DNA of 64,000 nt from an uncultured Chloroflexia bacterium (GTDB lineage: Bacteria; Chloroflexota; Limnocylindria; Limnocylindrales; CSP1-4), in the NCBI GenBank assembly GCA_963840375.1, contig CAWIYR010000002.1, forward strand, positions 896,613 through 960,612, read 5' to 3'. The position numbers were made by a program, and so were the translations under genes. Below, one piece after another: positions 2,928 through 41,447 of this stretch. Every line of letters begins with the position of its first letter. Within the stretch, counting starts at the first letter, position 1. The notes below the pieces were generated by a model. The model was not told the origin of the DNA and made no database searches. It saw only the letters and a list, made by a program, of their open reading frames with translations.

Positions 2928-4207
2928 GCCGGAGCATCCCGGGGCGCCGAACGGTCGACGCCCCGACCGCGAAGCAGCCGGGCGATCGCGAAGATCGACA
3001 GGCCGCACAGGAACATCCCGAGGATGCCCGTGATCTCGTAGCCGATCGCGGCGTGCCACAGCTCCGCATTCGCGTCGCTGAAGAAGGGCAGGGGCAGGTT
3101 GTACCCGCCGAGCGGGGCACTGAACACGGAGGACAGGTCCTGGAGCCCCTTGGGCACGTAGCCGAAGGCTGTCTTGACGTCCTCGACGCTGCCCTCACCG
3201 TAGGCGAAGCCAGGCGCGATGAGGCCGAGCGGCGCCACGACGGCCAGGGCCGTGAACGCCGTGCCGACGCGTTTCAGGTCGCGGGGCAGGAGGAACCAGG
3301 CGAGCGGGATGAGGATCACCCCGATGGCGGCCACGACGAGGAGCATCGAGGCGACCGCCGGCCAGTCGACCGTCGACCAGTCGGCGCCGAAGAGACGGGT
3401 CGGGTCGCCCCCGCCCATGACCAGACCGATCGCCCCGAGGGCGAGGATCGCGAGGACGAGCGAGCCGCCCACGATCTGCCAGAGCGGTCGGCGCGTGGCC
3501 TCCCCGACGGCCGTGTCGCTCTCGGCGAAGATCCCCGTGAGCGAGGTGAGGTACTCGGGGTGCCGCTTCTGGAAGTAGGCGATCCCGAGCCCGCTGATCA
3601 GCCCCTCGACGATCGACGCACCGAAGACGTGGGCGAGGAGCATCGCCGGGACCGCCTCGGCGAGGCCGTACGGGCTGTACATCGCGACGCCGTTCTCGCT
3701 GAAGAGGAGCGGCTGGATCCCCAGCTCGATCCCGACGAAGAGTGCCGACGCGGTCATCGCGACGTACCCGGCGATCCCCGCCGCCCACGCTCGGCGCACC
3801 GACAGGATCGGCGACCGGCCGCTCAGGACACGGTAGACCGCGTACCCGACGAACGGCATGACGATGGCCATGTTGAAGCAGTTGATGAGGATCGCCAGGA
3901 CGCCGCCGTCGCCGAAGAAGAGAGCCTGGATGACGAGGGCGGTGCTCACCGCGATCACCGCCGCCCACGGTCCCAGGACGATCGCGATGAGCGTGGCGCC
4001 GACGCCGTGGGCGGTCGTCCCGCCGGGCACCGGGATGTTGAACATCATGATCGTGAAGCTGAGCGCCGCGAAGATCGCCAGGAGCGGGATCGTCCGGTTG
4101 TTCAGGACCGTCTTCACCCGCTGGGTCGCGATCGCCCACGTCGGCAGCGTGGCCACGCCGACGCCGACCGAGATGATCGGGCTGAGGTATCCGTCGGGGA
4201 TGTGCAT
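2924..4207 (-). CDS. cbiM: Ni/Co ECF substrate-capture component, CbiM/NikM fused to a CbiN/NikN- or PDGLE-like C-terminal module
   Basis: N-terminus MHIPDGYLS is the metal-binding signature of CbiM/NikM. At 427 aa it is about twice the length of plain CbiM. The extra C-terminal part has TM helices and the segment FGYVPKGLQDL...GYNLPLPFF. Confidence 0.85.
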   Translation of the reverse strand: MHIPDGYLSPIISVGVGVATLPTWAIATQRVKTVLNNRTIPLLAIFAALSFTIMMFNIPVPGGTTAHGVGATLIAIVLGPWAAVIAVSTALVIQALFFGDGGVLAILINCFNMAIVMPFVGYAVYRVLSGRSPILSVRRAWAAGIAGYVAMTASALFVGIELGIQPLLFSENGVAMYSPYGLAEAVPAMLLAHVFGASIVEGLISGLGIAYFQKRHPEYLTSLTGIFAESDTAVGEATRRPLWQIVGGSLVLAILALGAIGLVMGGGDPTRLFGADWSTVDWPAVASMLLVVAAIGVILIPLAWFLLPRDLKRVGTAFTALAVVAPLGLIAPGFAYGEGSVEDVKTAFGYVPKGLQDLSSVFSAPLGGYNLPLPFFSDANAELWHAAIGYEITGILGMFLCGLSIFAIARLLRGRGVDRSAPRDAPA

Positions 4208-4326: not shown

Positions 4327-4794
4327 GTGGATGCGATCGGATCGCCCGCCCAGCGGCGGCCGGAGTGGGCGTCCGTCCGGGACGACCTTCGCGCCCGCGG
4401 GCTGCGCTGGACGCCGCAACGGCGGACCCTCGTGGAGGTCCTGTCGCGGGCCGACGGACACGTCACCGGGAGCGAGCTCGTGGAGCGCTGTCGCGAGATC
4501 GATCCCGAGACGACGCCCTCGACCGTGTACCGGACCCTGGACGTCCTCGAGGAGCTCGGCCTGGTCCGCCATGGCCACGGCGCCGACGGCCGCGAGGAGT
4601 TCCACGTCCTCCCGGCGACCGAACACGGGCACCTCTACTGCCGGAGCTGCGGTGGGACGTGGGAGATCGGTCGGGACGAGGGCGCCGCGCTCCTCGGCTC
4701 GCTCGCGGCGAGCCACCGGTTCGCGGTGGACCTCAGCCACGTGACGATCGTCGGCCGGTGTTCGAGCTGCCTCGAGCCGTCGAGCGAGTCCTGA
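4327..4794 (+). CDS. Fur family transcriptional regulator (Nur/nickel-responsive type plausible from context)
   Basis: LRWTPQRRTLVEVL...STVYRTLDVLEELGLVRH...HGHLYCRSCG...IVGRCSSC shows a winged-helix domain plus CxxC...CxxC and His-rich metal sites. GC3 rises only after the GTG at 4327, so the TTG 4249 track start is unlikely. Confidence 0.85.
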   Translation: MDAIGSPAQRRPEWASVRDDLRARGLRWTPQRRTLVEVLSRADGHVTGSELVERCREIDPETTPSTVYRTLDVLEELGLVRHGHGADGREEFHVLPATEHGHLYCRSCGGTWEIGRDEGAALLGSLAASHRFAVDLSHVTIVGRCSSCLEPSSES

Positions 4795-32288: not shown

Positions 32289-32634
32289 CGTCGACCTCCT
32301 CGCCGCGTCCGCGGCGCTCCGGCCCCGGCGGTCCGACCGGCCACTGCACCGGCGGGCGACCCGGGACGCCACCATCAGGATGGTCGTCGACGCTCCCCGA
32401 TGGCAGGGTCCGGCGACCCGCCCGGCGGGGGCAGGATGGCCCCACCGGGATCGACCCACGCTGGCCCGATCGGACCGAAGGCCGTTAGGGCCGTCAGGAC
32501 GGGGCCATTCGGCAGGTCCGAGTCGGGCCCTTCGTCCCGCGTAATCCGCCCAAGAGCCGGTGACCGAGGCCGTCGCCATGGGGCGACCAGCGTCCGACCG
32601 CGAGATGGTCGCCAGGTGACGAGGGATCGGCCGG

Positions 32635-33858
32635 ATGTCCAGGCTCGATGACAGCCTCTACGCGGCGCTCGTGGAACGCGGTGTCTCTCGCCGGTCGTTC
32701 CTGAAGTTCTCGGCGGCGATGGCCGGCGCCCTCGCCCTCCCGGCGAGCTACGCGCCGCGGATCGCCGCGGCGGTCGAGATCGCTCCCCGCATCCCGGTCA
32801 TCTGGCTCGAAGGCCAGGACTGCGCCGGGAACACCGAGGCATTCCTGCGCGCCTCCCATCCGACGACCGCCGAGCTGGTCCTCGACATCCTGTCGGTGGA
32901 CTACCACGAGACGCTCATGGTGGCCGCCGGCCAGCAGGCCGAGGAGGCCCGGCTGGCCACGATGGAGAAGTTCCCCAACGGCTACATCGCGGTGGTCGAG
33001 GGCTCGGTCCCGATCGCCGATGGTGGCGTCTACTGCACGATCGGCGGGCGCGCCTTCAGCGACACCGTCCGGCAGGTCTGCGAAGGCGCGATGGCGACGA
33101 TCTCGGTCGGCACGTGCGCCTTCGACGGCGGGCTGCCCGCGGCCGCCGGCGGCCCGACCGGCGCGGTCGGGGCGAGCGCCGCCGTCCCGAAGGCGAAGGT
33201 CATCAACCTGCCGGGTTGCCCGATGAACGTCCAGAACTTCACGGCGACGATCGTCCACAAGCTGACCTTCGGCGAGTGGCCGGCGCTCGACGCGATGGGC
33301 CGGCCCTTGTTCGCCTACGGCCAGCTGATCCACGACCAGTGCGAACGACGGGCCCATTTCGACCGGGGCGAGTACGTGATGGCGTGGGGCGACCAGGGCG
33401 CGCGCAACGGCTGGTGCCTCTACAAGATGGGCTGCAAGGGCCCCGAGACGCTGGCCAACTGCCCTACCGCCCGGTTCAACGACGGCACGAGCTGGCCGGT
33501 GAAGTCGGGTCACGGCTGCGTCGGCTGCACGATGCCCGGGTTCTGGGACGCCATGAGCCCGTTCTACCGGCGCCTGCCGGCGCCCACGCCGTTCCCGTCG
33601 GACGTCACCGTCGACCAGGTCGGGATCGTCCTCGTCGGCGGCGTCGCCGCCCTGAGCGCGGCCCACGGCGTGGCCAGCTACACCCGCAAGCGGCGGATGG
33701 ACGCCAAGGCGGCCGCCGGGATCTCGAGCGCCGCCGGTGTCGCGGTCGCCACCCCACCGGACGGCGGGCCGCCGGCGGCTCCACCACCGATGGCCCCACC
33801 GCCCGCGCCGCCATCGGCCGGGTCAGCCAGCGACCAGGCCAGCGGGAGGGCCGAGTGA
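32635..33858 (+). CDS. hupS: [NiFe]-hydrogenase small subunit, Tat-exported, with C-terminal membrane anchor
   Basis: Tat signal SRRSFLKFSAAMAG. Fe-S motifs GTCAFDGG, LPGCPMN, HDQCERRAHF, GWCLYKMGCKGP, NCP, GHGCVGCTMPGFWD. C-terminal TM helix plus a Pro/Ala tail. Confidence 0.95.
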   Translation: MSRLDDSLYAALVERGVSRRSFLKFSAAMAGALALPASYAPRIAAAVEIAPRIPVIWLEGQDCAGNTEAFLRASHPTTAELVLDILSVDYHETLMVAAGQQAEEARLATMEKFPNGYIAVVEGSVPIADGGVYCTIGGRAFSDTVRQVCEGAMATISVGTCAFDGGLPAAAGGPTGAVGASAAVPKAKVINLPGCPMNVQNFTATIVHKLTFGEWPALDAMGRPLFAYGQLIHDQCERRAHFDRGEYVMAWGDQGARNGWCLYKMGCKGPETLANCPTARFNDGTSWPVKSGHGCVGCTMPGFWDAMSPFYRRLPAPTPFPSDVTVDQVGIVLVGGVAALSAAHGVASYTRKRRMDAKAAAGISSAAGVAVATPPDGGPPAAPPPMAPPPAPPSAGSASDQASGRAE

Positions 33859-33859
33859 G

Positions 33860-35570
33860 ATGACCAGGATCGTCGTCGATCCGATCACCCGGATCGAGGG
33901 TCACCTCCGGATCGAGGTGGAGGTCCAGAACGGCGTCGTGTCCGACGCCTGGAGCTCCGGGACGATGTTCCGCGGCCTCGAGCTCATCCTCCAGGGTCGC
34001 GATCCACGCGACGCCTGGGTCTTCGCCCAGCGAGCCTGCGGGGTGTGCACCACGGTCCACGCCCTGGCGTCGGTGCGCTCGGTCGAGAACGCCCTCGAGA
34101 TCAAGATCCCGAAGAACGCCCGGATCGTCCGGAACCTCATCGCCGGATCGCAGTACGTCCAGGACCACGTCATCCACTTCTATCACCTGCACGCCCTGGA
34201 CTGGGTCAACATCGTCTCGGCCCTGTCGGCCGATCCGGCGGGCACCGCCGCCCTGGCCCAATCGATCAGCGACTGGCCGCTCTCCAGTGCGAGCTACTTC
34301 AAGGGGGTCCAGGACAAGCTCGCCGCGTTCGTCAAGACCGGTCAGCTGGGCCCGTTCGCCAACGGCTACTGGGACAACGCGGCCTACAAGCTCCCGGCCG
34401 AGGCGAACCTCATGGCCGCGGCCCACTACCTCGAGGCGCTCGACTGGCAGCGCCGGATCATCCGGATCCACGGCCTGCTCGGGGCGAAGAACCCCCATCC
34501 CCAGACCTATGCGGTCGGCGGGATGGCGCTCTCGATCGACCCGAACTCGACGACGGCCCTCAACGCCCGCGGGCTGTCCGAGATCAGCCAGCTCATCACC
34601 GAGGCGAACGACTTCGTCGACCGGGTCTACATCCCGGACGTCCTGGCCGTCGCCGGGTTCTACAAGGACTGGGCGGCCCTGGGTCGCGGCATCGGCAACT
34701 ACATGTCCTACGGCGAGTTCCCCCAGGACGACTCGGGTCAGCCGTCGGCGTTCTACCTGCCGCGCGGCCGGATCATGGGCCGCGACCTCTCGAAGGTGGA
34801 GCCGGTCGATCACACCCAGGTGGCCGAGACGGTGGCCCACTCCTACTACACCTACGACGGCGGGGACACCCAGTACAAGCATCCCTGGGACGGCCAGACG
34901 AAGCCGAACTACACGGGTCCCAAGCCGCCCTTCGAGACGCTCGAGGGGTCGGACAAGTACAGCTGGCTCAAGTCCCCGCGCTACGCCGACCAGCCGATGG
35001 AGGTCGGGCCGCTCGCTCGGATGCTGGTCGCCTACGGCGCCGGTCAACCGGAGGTGAAGGCCGCCGTCGACGCCGTCCTGGGCAAGCTCGGCGTGGGCGC
35101 CGAGGCCCTCTTCAGCACCCTCGGCCGGATCGCCGCCCGGGCGATCGAGACCCAGCTCATCGGCCACCGAGCTCCAGCCCTGGCTGACCGAGCTGGCCGA
35201 GAACCTCGACACGGGCGACCTGACGATCGCCGACACGACCCACTGGGAGCCCAGCACCTGGCCGGCCGAAGCCGAAGGCTGGGGCTTCGAGGAGGCGCCC
35301 CGCGGATCGCTCGGCCACTGGGTGAAGATCAAGGACCAGAAGATCGCGAACTACCAGCTCGTCGTGCCGAGCACCTGGAACGGCTCGCCGCGCGACGACA
35401 AGGGCCGGCGGGGGGCGTGGGAGGAGGCGCTCATCGGCACTCCGGTCGGCAACCCGGCACAGCCGGTGGAGATCCTCCGGACGATCCACTCGTTCGACCC
35501 GTGCATGGCCTGCGCCGTCCACGTCTACGACCCTGACGCGGGCAGCTCGGTCGAGATCCGGGTCGTTTGA
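33860..35570 (+). pseudogene. hupL: [NiFe]-hydrogenase large subunit, reading frame interrupted by a +1 shift near 35165-35169
   Basis: N-terminal part (33860-35167) carries RIEGH and RACGVCTTVH. Homology then jumps to the +1 frame (35169-35570: ELQPWLTEL...EEAPRGSLGHWVKIKD...STWNGSPRD...HSFDPCMACAVHV plus a 15-aa tail). The as-written frame continues as Arg-rich nonsense to 35536. Joined length would be about 569 aa. Confidence 0.9.
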
Positions 35571-35580
35571 AAGGGGTGAC

Positions 35581-36480
35581 GTGATGACTGCCATCCCCGC
35601 CCCCGGCCCGGCCCCGACCCGACCGGCCGCGGCGGCCACCCGGGCGGCCGACGACGAGCTCGAGATCCCCCCGGGTCTCGAGCGGGTCCGGATCTACGTC
35701 TGGCAGGTCCCCGTCCGGGTGACCCACTGGGTCACCTTCTCGGCGATCGTCGTCCTGACCGTGACCGGTGCGTACATCGCCGACCCGTTCTTCTTCGCCT
35801 TCAACGCCGAGACGATGTCGACGATGCGGGTGGTCCACATGCTCGCGGCGTTCATCTTCCTCGCCTCGGGCGTCCTGCGGACGTACTGGCTCTTCGCCGG
35901 CAACCAGTTCTCGCGCTGGACCGCGTTCGTCCCAACGAACCGGCGGCACCTGGCCGAGGTCCGGACCCAGACCGCCTTCTACCTCTTCCGGAGCCGGGAC
36001 ATCCCGGGCATCCTCGGCCACAACGCGCTGGCCGGCGGGACCTACACCGTGGTCTTCTTCCTGTTCCTCATCCAGACCGTCACCGGCTTCGGGATGCTCG
36101 CCATCCACGGCACGGAGCCGTGGGCCGCCCTGTTCGGCTGGGTCCCGGCGCTGTTGGGGGAGCAGGGGATGCGCCTCCTCCACCACCTGCTGATGTGGGT
36201 GATCCTGGCCTTCGCCGTCCACCACGTCTACAGTGCGATCCTCGTCGACCACTGGGAGCGCAACGGGCTGATGTCGAGCATCTTCGCCGGCTCGAAGTTC
36301 GTGCCTCGCTGGCGGATCGACGAGGCCCGCGATGGCGGGATCGCCTTCGACCGGATGGTCACCCGGGAGGACATCGAGACGTCGATCGTCGAGGCCGTCG
36401 AGGCCGGCCAGCCGCTGACGAAGGAGGAGGTCGTGGCCCTCGACGAGGCGACCGAGGCGGTGGAACGGGACGCCGGGTGA
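35581..36480 (+). CDS. hupC: Ni/Fe-hydrogenase b-type cytochrome subunit
   Basis: VRVTHWVTFSAIVVL..., four TM helices with conserved His (HMLAAF, HHLLMWVILAFAVHHVY). It sits immediately after the large subunit. Confidence 0.9.
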   Translation: MMTAIPAPGPAPTRPAAAATRAADDELEIPPGLERVRIYVWQVPVRVTHWVTFSAIVVLTVTGAYIADPFFFAFNAETMSTMRVVHMLAAFIFLASGVLRTYWLFAGNQFSRWTAFVPTNRRHLAEVRTQTAFYLFRSRDIPGILGHNALAGGTYTVVFFLFLIQTVTGFGMLAIHGTEPWAALFGWVPALLGEQGMRLLHHLLMWVILAFAVHHVYSAILVDHWERNGLMSSIFAGSKFVPRWRIDEARDGGIAFDRMVTREDIETSIVEAVEAGQPLTKEEVVALDEATEAVERDAG

Positions 36481-37100: not shown

Positions 37101-37442
37101 ATGCATGAGTCGGGACTCGCGGCAGCGGTCGCGGACGCCCTCCGCGGTGAGCGGCTCGACGGCGCCCGGGTGCGGCTCCTCGTGAGCGGAGGCCACGCGG
37201 ACCCCTTCGACTTCGACGCCGCGTTCCGCTTCCACCTCACCGCGGCGGCGCCCGACCTCGGCGCGCTCCCGCTGGAGATCGTCCATCTGCCGACGGACCG
37301 GCTGTGTGTCGGCTGCGGCCGCACCTTCGCCGCGATCACCGCCGACGAGCCCTGCCCGAAGTGCGGATCGGTGGGTCTTCCGACCCAGACGACCGAGCGG
37401 GTCGAGATCGAGCTGGTACGCCCGGGTGCCAACGACCCCTGA
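37101..37442 (+). CDS. hypA: Hydrogenase nickel-insertion protein HypA
   Basis: N-terminal MHE nickel motif and the CVGCG...CPKCG zinc site. Confidence 0.9.
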   Translation: MHESGLAAAVADALRGERLDGARVRLLVSGGHADPFDFDAAFRFHLTAAAPDLGALPLEIVHLPTDRLCVGCGRTFAAITADEPCPKCGSVGLPTQTTERVEIELVRPGANDP

Positions 37443-37533
37443 GCGGACGCGCGTCCCGCGCCAGGCGCGTCCCGTTCCCGTTCCCGCTCCCTCCCGTGAC
37501 CGAGGTCGGGCGACCGACTGCGTCGCGCGCGCC

Positions 37534-40299
37534 GTGACCGTCGAGGGCGTCGTCCAGGGTGTCGGCTTCCGGCCGTTCGTCTGGCGGCTGGCCCACGAGC
37601 TGGGACTCGACGGCGTGGTCCTGAATGCCGCGGGCCGGGTCGAGATCCGGGTCGCGGGCCCAGCGCAGGCGGTCGAGCGCTTCATCGAGCGGCTCGCCTC
37701 CGACGCCCCGCCCCGGGCCCGGGTGGAGCGGGTGGTCGCGGCCGAGATCGCGATGGATGCTTCCCCCGAGATCGCCGCCGCACCCCGGCGCGGCTCGGGC
37801 TTCACGATCGAGGAGAGCGTGGCGGCCGCGTCCGTGGTCCGCCTCTTCCCGCCCGACATCGCCACCTGCGACGACTGCCTTCGGGAGCTCTTCGACCCGA
37901 ACGATCGGCGCCATCGCTACCCGTTCACCAACTGCACGAACTGTGGGCCCCGGGCCACGATCATCGAGGAGCTGCCCTACGACCGGGCCCGGACGTCGAT
38001 GCGCGACTTCCCGCTCTGCGAGGCCTGCGAGCGGGAGTACCGCGACCCGGCCGATCGCCGCTTCCACGCCGAGCCGGTCGCCTGCCCGGCCTGTGGCCCG
38101 CGGCTCGCCTTCCGTCGAACCGGCGACCCGGCGCCGATCCGGACCGGCGACGCCGCCCTGGCCGAGGCCGTCGGCGAGATCGTCGCCGGACGGGTGGTCG
38201 CGGTGAAGGGGCTCGGCGGCTACCATCTCGCCTGCGACGCGACCGACGGTGCGGCCGTCACCCGGCTCCGCGACCGCAAGCGCCGCTGGGCGAAGCCGTT
38301 CGCGGTCATGGTCCGCGACCTTGCCGCGGCCCGCTCGATCGCTCAGCTCACGCCGCTCGAGATCGAGCTGCTCACCTCGCCCGCCCGGCCGATCGTGCTG
38401 GTGTCGATCCGCCCGGACGCTCGTCCGGCGATCGCGCCCGAGGTGCTGAACGGGAACCGCCGGATCGGGCTCTTCCTGCCGTACACGCCGCTCCATCACC
38501 TCCTGCTCGAGGCGACCGGCCGACCGGTCGTGCTCACCAGCGGCAACCTCTCCGACGAGCCGCTCGTCACCGACGATGACGAGGCGCTCGCCCGGCTGGC
38601 CGGGATCGCCGACGCCTTCCTGGCCCACGATCGCCGGATCCGGGCGCGCTACGACGACTCGGTGACCCGGGTGCTGGGTCGGGGCGTCACTGCCCGCGAG
38701 TCGATCATCCGGCGCGGGCGCGGCTACGCCCCGGACCCGCTGACCCTGCCCGTCGAGCTCCCGGCCGGCGAGGTCGTCCTGGCCGCCGGAGCCGAGCTGA
38801 AGCACACGTTCGCCCTCGCGGCCGGGTCACGGGCCCACGTCGGACCGCACGTCGGCGACCTGGAGGATCTCGCGACGCACCAGGCCTTCCTGGGGAACCT
38901 GGCCCACCTCCAGCGGCTCCTCGCCCTCGAGCCCGGACGGGTCGTCCACGACCTGCATCCGGGGTACCTGTCCACCCGGTTCGCGCTCGATCGGTTCCCG
39001 GCCGACCGACGGATCGCCGTCCAGCACCACCACGCCCACGTCGCGTCGTGTGCCGCCGAGCATGGGGTCACGGTACCGTTCCTCGGGATCGCCTACGACG
39101 GCCTGGGGATGGGCGATGACGGGACCTTCTGGGGCGGCGAGGTTCTCATCGCGGACCTTCGCGGCTACCGTCGCTTCGCCCGCTTCGGGCTGGCGCCGAT
39201 GCCCGGTGGGGCGACAGCCGTCCGCAAGCCCTACCGGATGGCCCTGGGCTACCTGTTCGGCGCCGAGGGCGACCCGACGGGCGACCCGCTCGCGGGCGCG
39301 ATCGCCGACGGGGTCGCGGCGGCCTTCCTCGCCCGGCTCGACCCCCGTGAGGTCGAGGTCGTCCGGGTCCAGCTCCGTCGCCGGCTCAACGCCCCGCTCG
39401 CCTCGAGCGCCGGTCGGCTCTTCGACGCGGCCAGCAGCCTCATCGGTCTGCGCGACGTCGCCGAGTTCGAGGCCCAGGCGGCGATCGACCTCGAGATGAC
39501 CGCCGACCCGACGGCTCGTGGTCGGCTTCCGTACCGCCTCGTCCGGCGCGACGGCCTGCTGGTCTACGACCCGCGACCCACCCTGCTCGGCCTCCTCGAG
39601 GGGCTCGCCGGGGGGACGACGCCGGCCGTTCTGGCCGCCCGCTTCCAGGCCACGATCACGGCCGTCACCCGGGAGTTGTGCGCCGAGGCCCGCCGGTCGA
39701 CCGGGATCGAGGTCGCCTGCCTGTCCGGCGGGGTCTTCCAGAACCGCCACGTCGCCGATGCGCTCCTGACCGGTCTGGCTCGCGACGGCTTCGACGTCCA
39801 CATCAACGAACGGGTCCCGGTGAACGACGGGGGCATCAGCTACGGCCAGGCGGCCGTGGCTGCCGCCCGGCTCGCCGCCTCGTCCGCTCGCCCCCGCGGC
39901 CGGCCCGGCCGCCGCGCTCACCCGGAACCCCTGAGGAGGACCACCGCCATGTGCCTCGGCATCCCCGGCAAGGTCATCGAGATCCGCGACGAGGCGGGTC
40001 TGCGGATGGGCCGCGTCGACTTCGGCGGCGTCCGCAAGGAGGCCTGCCTGGCCTATGCGCCCGAGGTCGAGCTCGGCGACTACGTCATCGTCCACGTCGG
40101 GTTCGCGATCAGCAAGGTCGACGAGGAGGAGGCCCTCCGGACGCTCGAGCTCCTGAGCACGATGGGCGACCTCGTCCAGCAGGAGCTGGCCACGATGGGC
40201 CCGGGGATGAGCCTGCCCGCCGTGGTCGACGACCCGATCCCCGACCCGGCGGCCGGGCCGGGCAGGACCGCGCCGCTCGCCGGCGGGCCCGTGGCATGA
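37534..40299 (+). CDS. hypF: Carbamoyltransferase HypF; frame stays open through hypC as written
   Basis: Acylphosphatase motif [10 protein letters not shown], two zinc fingers (CDDC...CTNCGPR, CEAC...CPACGP), YrdC-like and Kae1-like domains, ...[10 protein letters not shown]. The start is uncertain (GTG 37534; alternative GTG 37426). There is no in-frame stop before the hypC ATG at 39949. HypF-like sequence ends near 39870. Confidence 0.85.
39949..40299 (+). CDS. hypC: Hydrogenase assembly chaperone HypC, with a 41-aa Pro-rich C-terminal extension
   Basis: [12 protein letters not shown] (essential N-terminal Cys) preceded by a GAGGAGG RBS. Nested in frame inside the hypF ORF. Its stop overlaps the hypD start (ATGA at 40296-40299). 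Confidence 0.85.
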
Positions 40300-41447
40300 A
40301 GTACCTCGACGAGTACCGCGACCCCGTACTCGCCAGGAAGCTCATGGCCGAGATCCACCGGATCACGACCAGGCCGTGGACGCTCATGGAGGTCTGCGGC
40401 GGCCAGACCCACACGATCGTGAAGCAGGGCATCGACGAGATGCTCCCCGACGGCGTCCGGATGATCCATGGGCCGGGCTGTCCGGTCTGCGTGACCCCGC
40501 TCGAGCAGGTCGACAAGGCCCTGGCCATCGCCGCCCGGCCGGACGTCATCTTCACCAGCTACGGCGACATGCTCAGGGTCCCCGGCTCCACCACCGACCT
40601 CCTCTCGCTCAAGGCCCGCGGCGCCGACGTCCGGATCGTCTACTCGCCGCTGGACTCGGTCCGGATCGCCCGGGCGAACCCGGATCGCCAGGTCGTCTTC
40701 TTCGCGGTGGGCTTCGAGACGACCGCTCCGGCGAACGCGATGGCGGTCTGGCAGGCCGCCCAGCTGGGGGTCGACAACTTCTCGATCCTGGTCTCCCACG
40801 TCCTCGTCCCGCCGGCGATGATCGCCCTGCTCGAGTCGCCCAACAACCAGGTCCAGTCGTTCCTGGCCGCGGGCCACGTCTGCGCGGTGATGGGCTGGAC
40901 CGAGTACGAGCCGATCGCCGCGAAGTACCACGTGCCGATCGTGGTGACCGGCTTCGAGCCGCTCGACCTGCTCGAGGGGATCCTCATGGCGATCCGCCAG
41001 CTGGAAGAGGGTCGGGCCGTCGTCGAGAACCAATACGTCCGGGCCGTCAAGCGCGGCGGCAACGCGCTCGCCCAGGAGACGATCTTCCGGGTCTTCGACG
41101 TGGGCGAGCGGACCTGGCGGGGGATCGGCGAGATCCCGGACTCCGGCTACCACCTCAAGCCCACCTTCGCGCGGTTCGACGCCGAGACGAAGTTCTCGGT
41201 CGCCGAGATCCACACCAGGGAGCATCCGGCCTGCATCGCCGGGGCGATCCTGACCGGCGAGAAGTCGCCCCTGGACTGCACGGCCTACGGCGTCCTGTGC
41301 AGCCCCCAGAAGCCGCTCGGCGCGCCGATGGTCTCGTCAGAGGGGACCTGCGCCGCGTTCTACTCGGCGGGGCGGGGGATCGGCGCCCCGGCCCGGCCGC
41401 TGCCGATGGTCGAGCCGCTTACCCTCCGGCCGGAGGCGATCCGATGA
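40296..41447 (+). CDS. hypD: Hydrogenase formation protein HypD
   Basis: MKYLDEYRD..., [28 protein letters not shown]-terminal cysteine motifs. Confidence 0.95.

Follow-up and report, generated by a model that had tools for sequence, protein, structure and literature searches.

An open reading frame joining hypF and hypC in an uncultured Chloroflexota bacterium most likely reflects one extra base and not a real gene fusion

In 64,000 nucleotides of DNA from an uncultured Chloroflexia bacterium (contig CAWIYR010000002.1, positions 896,613 to 960,612 of the forward strand; hereafter the window), the [NiFe]-hydrogenase maturation genes hypF and hypC were joined in one uninterrupted open reading frame (ORF). 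Most likely, the two are normal, separate genes in the hyp operon of a high-GC Chloroflexota bacterium from soil, probably close to Limnocylindria, and their fusion is not a real feature. The reading frame was joined by a single extra base, G39886, which probably arose as an indel error in the consensus of a long-read metagenome assembly and is absent from the DNA of the organism itself. Should the base be real, which we regard as rather unlikely, a wild soil strain would carry a very recent frameshift, with a read-through HypF-HypC, a nested HypC and a frameshifted hydrogenase large subunit.

The ORF listing gave an ORF from 37306 to 40299 on the plus strand (997 codons) with no stop between the HypF tail and the HypC start MCLGIPGK, so that the stop-free run of the HypF frame through hypC to 40299, claimed in the first-pass annotation, was confirmed by the listing and by Pfam. 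In the protein database, the ORF of the window was present as P0127 (921 aa; sources NCBI and ENA; contig of 1,216,802 bp), a HypF-HypC protein encoded from 37534 to 40299 (+), from GTG 37534 to TGA 40297-40299, and beginning with MTVEG at residue 77 of the ORF. The hypF core, from the GTG of the database gene call, extended from 37534 to 39885 (+) and held all catalytic domains. Pfam recovered the full HypF architecture in the expected order (acylphosphatase, PF00708; two copies of zf-HYPF, PF07503; YrdC-like, PF01300; Kae1-like HypF_C and HypF_C_2, PF17788 and PF22521; E-values 1e-20 to 1e-67) up to residue 848, and a HupF_HypC domain on the same ORF at residues 882-950 (PF01455; 1.3e-27), with the N-terminal Met-Cys of HypC present. 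The HypF of the window was colinear with the intact 799-aa HypF of a close relative (locus L084) in one tblastn HSP, in a single frame, over residues 1-782. The own stop that is typical of HypF, after NDGG(I/L)xxGQ and before hypC, was absent, and no in-frame stop occurred before 40297.

The mechanical hypF ORF began 76 codons before GTG 37534, the probable start, and this stretch (37306-37533) was off-frame, Arg/Pro/Ser-rich and overlapped hypA (37101-37442). In the frames of hypD and hypE, stop-free ORFs likewise began about 0.9 kb (39351) and about 1.2 kb (40211) upstream of the gene starts, with first start codons at 39678 and 40376. The overextension upstream of hypF, hypD and hypE illustrates the rarity of stops in this genome (GC content of the window, 71.7%). 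Stops made up 0.2% of the codons of the gene cluster in the off-frame reached after a +1 insertion, and 96% of the 21-codon windows in that frame were stop-free. A stop-free run into hypC after a +1 shift was to be expected, because the shifted frame in 72% GC DNA is almost without stops.

At the junction, hypC (39949 to 40299, +; 116 aa, starting MCLGIPGK) was in the same phase as hypF, and its stop (TGA 40297-40299) overlapped the hypD ATG at 40296. The GAGGAGG that had been noted 9 nt before the hypC ATG was found at 39933 to 39939 (+), with a 9-nt spacer to ATG 39949. Separate initiation of hypC, expected by the first-pass annotation, is consistent with the retention of this Shine-Dalgarno and of the ATG. 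The same annotation had placed a TGA of the +1 frame at 39933-39935, where a normal hypF stop would sit; the stop exists, at 39932-39934, and overlaps the Shine-Dalgarno. Together with this TGA, a native-frame hypF tail of 15 residues (39887 to 39934, +) lay one base out of frame in the window, and the +1 frame reproduced the orthologue C-terminus ...GPA(A/V)(A/T)LTRNP and its stop. The tail peptide noted in the +1 frame was confirmed, whereas the argument from GC3 for that frame carried little weight: GC3 was 0.85-0.90 in all three frames across 39850-39939, and frame statistics of the tail did not discriminate and were discarded as evidence.

DNA alignments confirmed a one-base insertion near 39880, proposed earlier to displace hypF past its normal stop, and fixed it as G39886 (39886 to 39886, +; context gtcc[G]ctcg). 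The four closest relatives from independent assemblies (L081, L082, L084 and L085) were all without this base, and in all four HypF ended with ...(A/T)LTRNP at the TGA of the +1 frame. None of the relatives compared had an orthologue ending like the in-frame HypF tail of the window. L082 had 4 differences from the window in 1387 nt (39733-41119; 99.7% identity) and was 98.4% identical over 1513 nt; the gap opposite G39886 was the only indel in the 1513 nt, and the substitutions at 39891 and 39898 were both within 13 nt of it. Two JGI contigs (L082 and L083) had a gene call of its own for the exact 116-aa HypC of the window. In L081, hypC began 14 nt after the hypF stop and the native-frame tail read AVGPAVALTRNP*; the L081 protein P0001 was 93% identical to the protein of the window and ended in ...AAARLADSPPARAVGPAVALTRNP. 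In L084, a short-read k141 contig whose intact 799-aa HypF precedes a separate HypC, and in L085, a JGI contig, HypF ended in ...AVGPAVTLTRNP*.

The motif cTGAGGAGG, with the TGA of hypF in the Shine-Dalgarno of hypC, was kept in six relatives (L081, L082, L084, L085, L088 and L089). A hypF stop overlapping the hypC Shine-Dalgarno was evident from the aligned loci as the native layout of the clade, and the window retains this stop one base out of frame. The native frame and the C-terminal peptide are common to relatives at about 99.7%, 90% and 86% identity, which makes the state of the window the derived one. As far as the alignments reach, the extra base was demonstrably private to the assembly of the window. 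Exact-pattern scans of metagenome contigs returned 0 matches and then 1, the known L085 contig. Toward the end of the L082 contig (1388-1500, against 41120-41231 of the window), 20 differences were crowded into 112 nt of hypD, chiefly in third codon positions, a pattern suggesting a recombination tract or a chimera at the end of the contig.

Scanning GTDB species representatives, with a single genome for each species, gave 80 loci, mostly from Chloroflexota MAGs (Limnocylindria, "Chloroflexia" and Anaerolineae), with a best match of 77% protein identity. A recognisable hypF-hypC junction was present in about 62 of the 80 loci, and the hypF stop preceded the hypC ATG by 4-150 nt in about 61 of these. 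The sole exception, and the only other in-frame read-through among the junctions, was L009, an MFD long-read MAG. In L009, a 2-nt insertion (at about 4480-4521) stood just before a conserved TAG (GGCGGCGCTCCTAG; relatives GGCG--CGTCCTAG), which is the hypF stop of its relatives, and a second frame change was present in the hypF core. Among relatives, the HypF tail beyond the last conserved motif was short, variable and Ala/Gly/Pro-rich.

Both domains were present on one ORF in about 7 of the best 150 matches when 1.84 billion representative proteins were searched. The fusion ORFs examined were P0002 and P0254, P0256, P0283, P0311, P0343, P0348 and P0367; no clean HypF-HypC fusion was found among the two-domain database ORFs other than that of the window, with HypF or HypC segments scrambled or off-frame in all of them. 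The doubt already expressed about a true fusion was borne out, as the database search gave only frameshift-ridden fusions, none of them conserved in relatives, and a fusion shared by orthologues was absent from L081, L082, L084, L085, L086 and L088. Among the sequences compared there is no conserved HypF-HypC fusion family. In P0018, from an ENA contig of 15,780 bp, the NDGGISYGQ motif was intact, the frame passed the Shine-Dalgarno (LREK) with the usual stop missed, and it then entered hypC for 12 codons, out of frame (...NNVSWDPGQGHRDP).

A functional HypF-HypC fusion kept by selection, which would give the maturation machinery a new domain architecture, draws its support solely from the uninterrupted ORF and the handful of database ORFs spanning both domains, and it is highly improbable. 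The other such ORFs are frameshift-ridden, none of the six closest relatives shares the fusion, the ancestral stop and Shine-Dalgarno are still there, one base out of frame, and the linker, translated off-frame and rich in Arg, resembles no orthologue tail. The N-terminal Cys2 of HypC is essential and holds Fe(CN)2CO with Cys41 of HypD (PMC12134894). In a fusion this cysteine, needed for that binding, would be internal, which argues against a functional N-terminal fusion. Programmed frameshifting or recoding was rejected, with no slippery motif and no conservation found and the relatives simply lacking the base.

The contig of the window, at 1,216,802 bp, is of a size typical of long-read MAGs, and the window is probably from a long-read assembly, as inferred solely from this contig size of 1.2 Mb. 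The MFD-LR MAGs were assembled from Nanopore reads only and polished in a single Medaka round (PMC12313526). As with indel errors in Nanopore-only MAGs of this kind, the insertion in the window was of a single base, private and on a contig of more than 1 Mb, and a second single-base frameshift occurred in a conserved gene nearby. Similar hypF frameshifts were carried by the sister long-read MAGs L081, L009, L070 and L073. Of 21 MFD long-read loci, 3 had frameshifts in the hypF core, as did L081; among about 59 other loci there was only 1. L081 (a 1.0-Mb contig with a Flye-style name) had two private one-base insertions within conserved hypF domains, and many HypF fragments of 180-480 aa came from contigs between 40 kb and 1.4 Mb long. 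The window differed from the Nanopore-only cases in that its site was outside a long homopolymer and its platform is a deduction; that G39886 is not within a homopolymer counts against an error, as does the position of the sole indel relative to L082 in a frameshift-tolerant stretch beside two substitutions. The two insertions of L081 (within L081 4600-7137) corresponded to 38422 and 38843 of the window and spread the gene over three frames; in the database, the HypF of L081 is represented only by the 378-aa fragment P0001. Logan contigs of a near-identical strain, present at 2-6x in four soil and wetland metagenomes (runs X1-X4), ended at 39873 and restarted at 39951, with none spanning 39874-39950.

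The second one-base frameshift of the window was in the conserved [NiFe] large subunit, at about 35168. The gene (33656-35567) was split, with PF00374 positions 1-394 in the ORF 33656-35533 and 389-508 in the ORF 35058-35567; the break was at about 35165-35170 (junction ...TQLIGH|ELQPWL...), and homologues ran through it without interruption. At the C-terminus of the large subunit, both the DPCMACAVH motif and the cleavable extension were intact. No near-identical relatives of the large subunit were found, the closest being 81% identical, and the exact extra base near 35168 was not fixed by DNA comparison. None of the Logan contigs from runs X1-X4 spanned the break (they broke at 35149 and 35180), and a cytochrome b bait toward the site matched only a 1-kb Logan contig. 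Outside the hydrogenase cluster, a GC3-phase HMM scan with Pfam found no further frameshifts in the 64 kb; GC3-phase anomalies at 4792/4855, 53425, 1288 and 33729 were rejected as frameshifts, being neighbouring genes where Pfam-checked. The confinement of the two frameshifts to the hydrogenase cluster would fit real decay as well as error.

Relative to L081 (roughly 87-90% identical), the window contained a structural block of about 3.8 kb (32570-36409) that was missing from L081 at about 3563-3577. The block comprised a small subunit with a TAT signal, the large subunit and cytochrome b (a group-1-like uptake hydrogenase), and L081 passed directly from a tRNA_edit gene to hycI-hypA-hypF. This presence or absence of 3.8 kb indicates that the hydrogenase cluster is evolutionarily labile.

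That the extra G is a genuine, recent and strain-specific frameshift is possible, if on the doubtful side. Such a strain would make a HypF-HypC of about 98 kDa, with intact HypF domains and a 21-residue Arg-rich linker, plus some free HypC, and with the split large subunit this would amount to early decay of the uptake hydrogenase or to a near-neutral change in a dispensable tail. The indel fell in the only poorly constrained part of hypF, with two substitutions clustered nearby, a picture that real variation under relaxed constraint would also give, and HypF tails differ in length and sequence among relatives, of which P0018 is another with a HypF frame overrunning the hypC start, out of frame. 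Only two frameshifts were seen in 64 kb, both in the hydrogenase cluster, and the structural genes of this labile cluster are themselves a 3.8-kb presence/absence difference from L081. However, the base was private to one assembly and lacking in the near-identical L082, and decay left no other sign, with domains intact, a HypC identical to that of L082 and L083, and DPCMACAVH kept. Similar one-base insertions also lay inside essential hypF domains of long-read relatives, and are unlikely to be real in so many genomes.

The native end of hypF is TGA 39932-39934, overlapping the hypC Shine-Dalgarno in a translational-coupling layout. G39886, in the unconserved Ala/Pro/Gly-rich tail of HypF, throws the stop, together with the 15 codons before it, out of frame; by chance the resulting frame coincides with that of hypC, and the ORF continues for 21 more codons before passing through hypC. 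If the base is an error, the cell would make HypF (about 800 aa) and HypC (116 aa) separately: ribosomes would terminate at the native TGA, HypC would start 14 nt downstream, and its Cys2 would become the free N-terminus after removal of Met. Were the base real, the catalytic domains of HypF would be unchanged and 15 tail residues would be replaced with 21 Arg-rich residues plus HypC; free HypC could still be translated from its own Shine-Dalgarno and ATG, both retained, although read-through ribosomes would interfere to some extent.

The window agrees with the canonical hypF-hypC pair in domain content (Pfam), in the gene order hycI-hypA-hypF-hypC-hypD-hypE, shared with L081, L084 and L086, and in the overlaps of the hypF stop with the hypC Shine-Dalgarno and of the hypC stop with the hypD start (ATGA). 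It differs from that pair in one extra base, which puts the hypF stop out of frame and makes a single ORF. If the base is real, frameshift or stop-loss fusion of coupled genes would be the origin of the ORF, and a fusion plus a nested product would be possible; unlike an established case of such fusion, the window showed neither conservation nor evidence of selection, and the fused HypC would be without a free N-terminal cysteine.

As a correction of annotation, P0127 (921 aa) should not be taken for a novel arrangement of domains, and neither should similar two-domain ORFs. The window also exemplifies a general pitfall of high-GC genomes, in which a stop overlapping the next Shine-Dalgarno, with one indel in an unconstrained tail, gives a clean-looking long fusion ORF. 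If the base is real, the window would be a minor case of stop-loss fusion or of early pseudogenisation, and would catch an uptake [NiFe]-hydrogenase cluster just as its decay sets in, or two maturation factors in a fusion that is tolerated.
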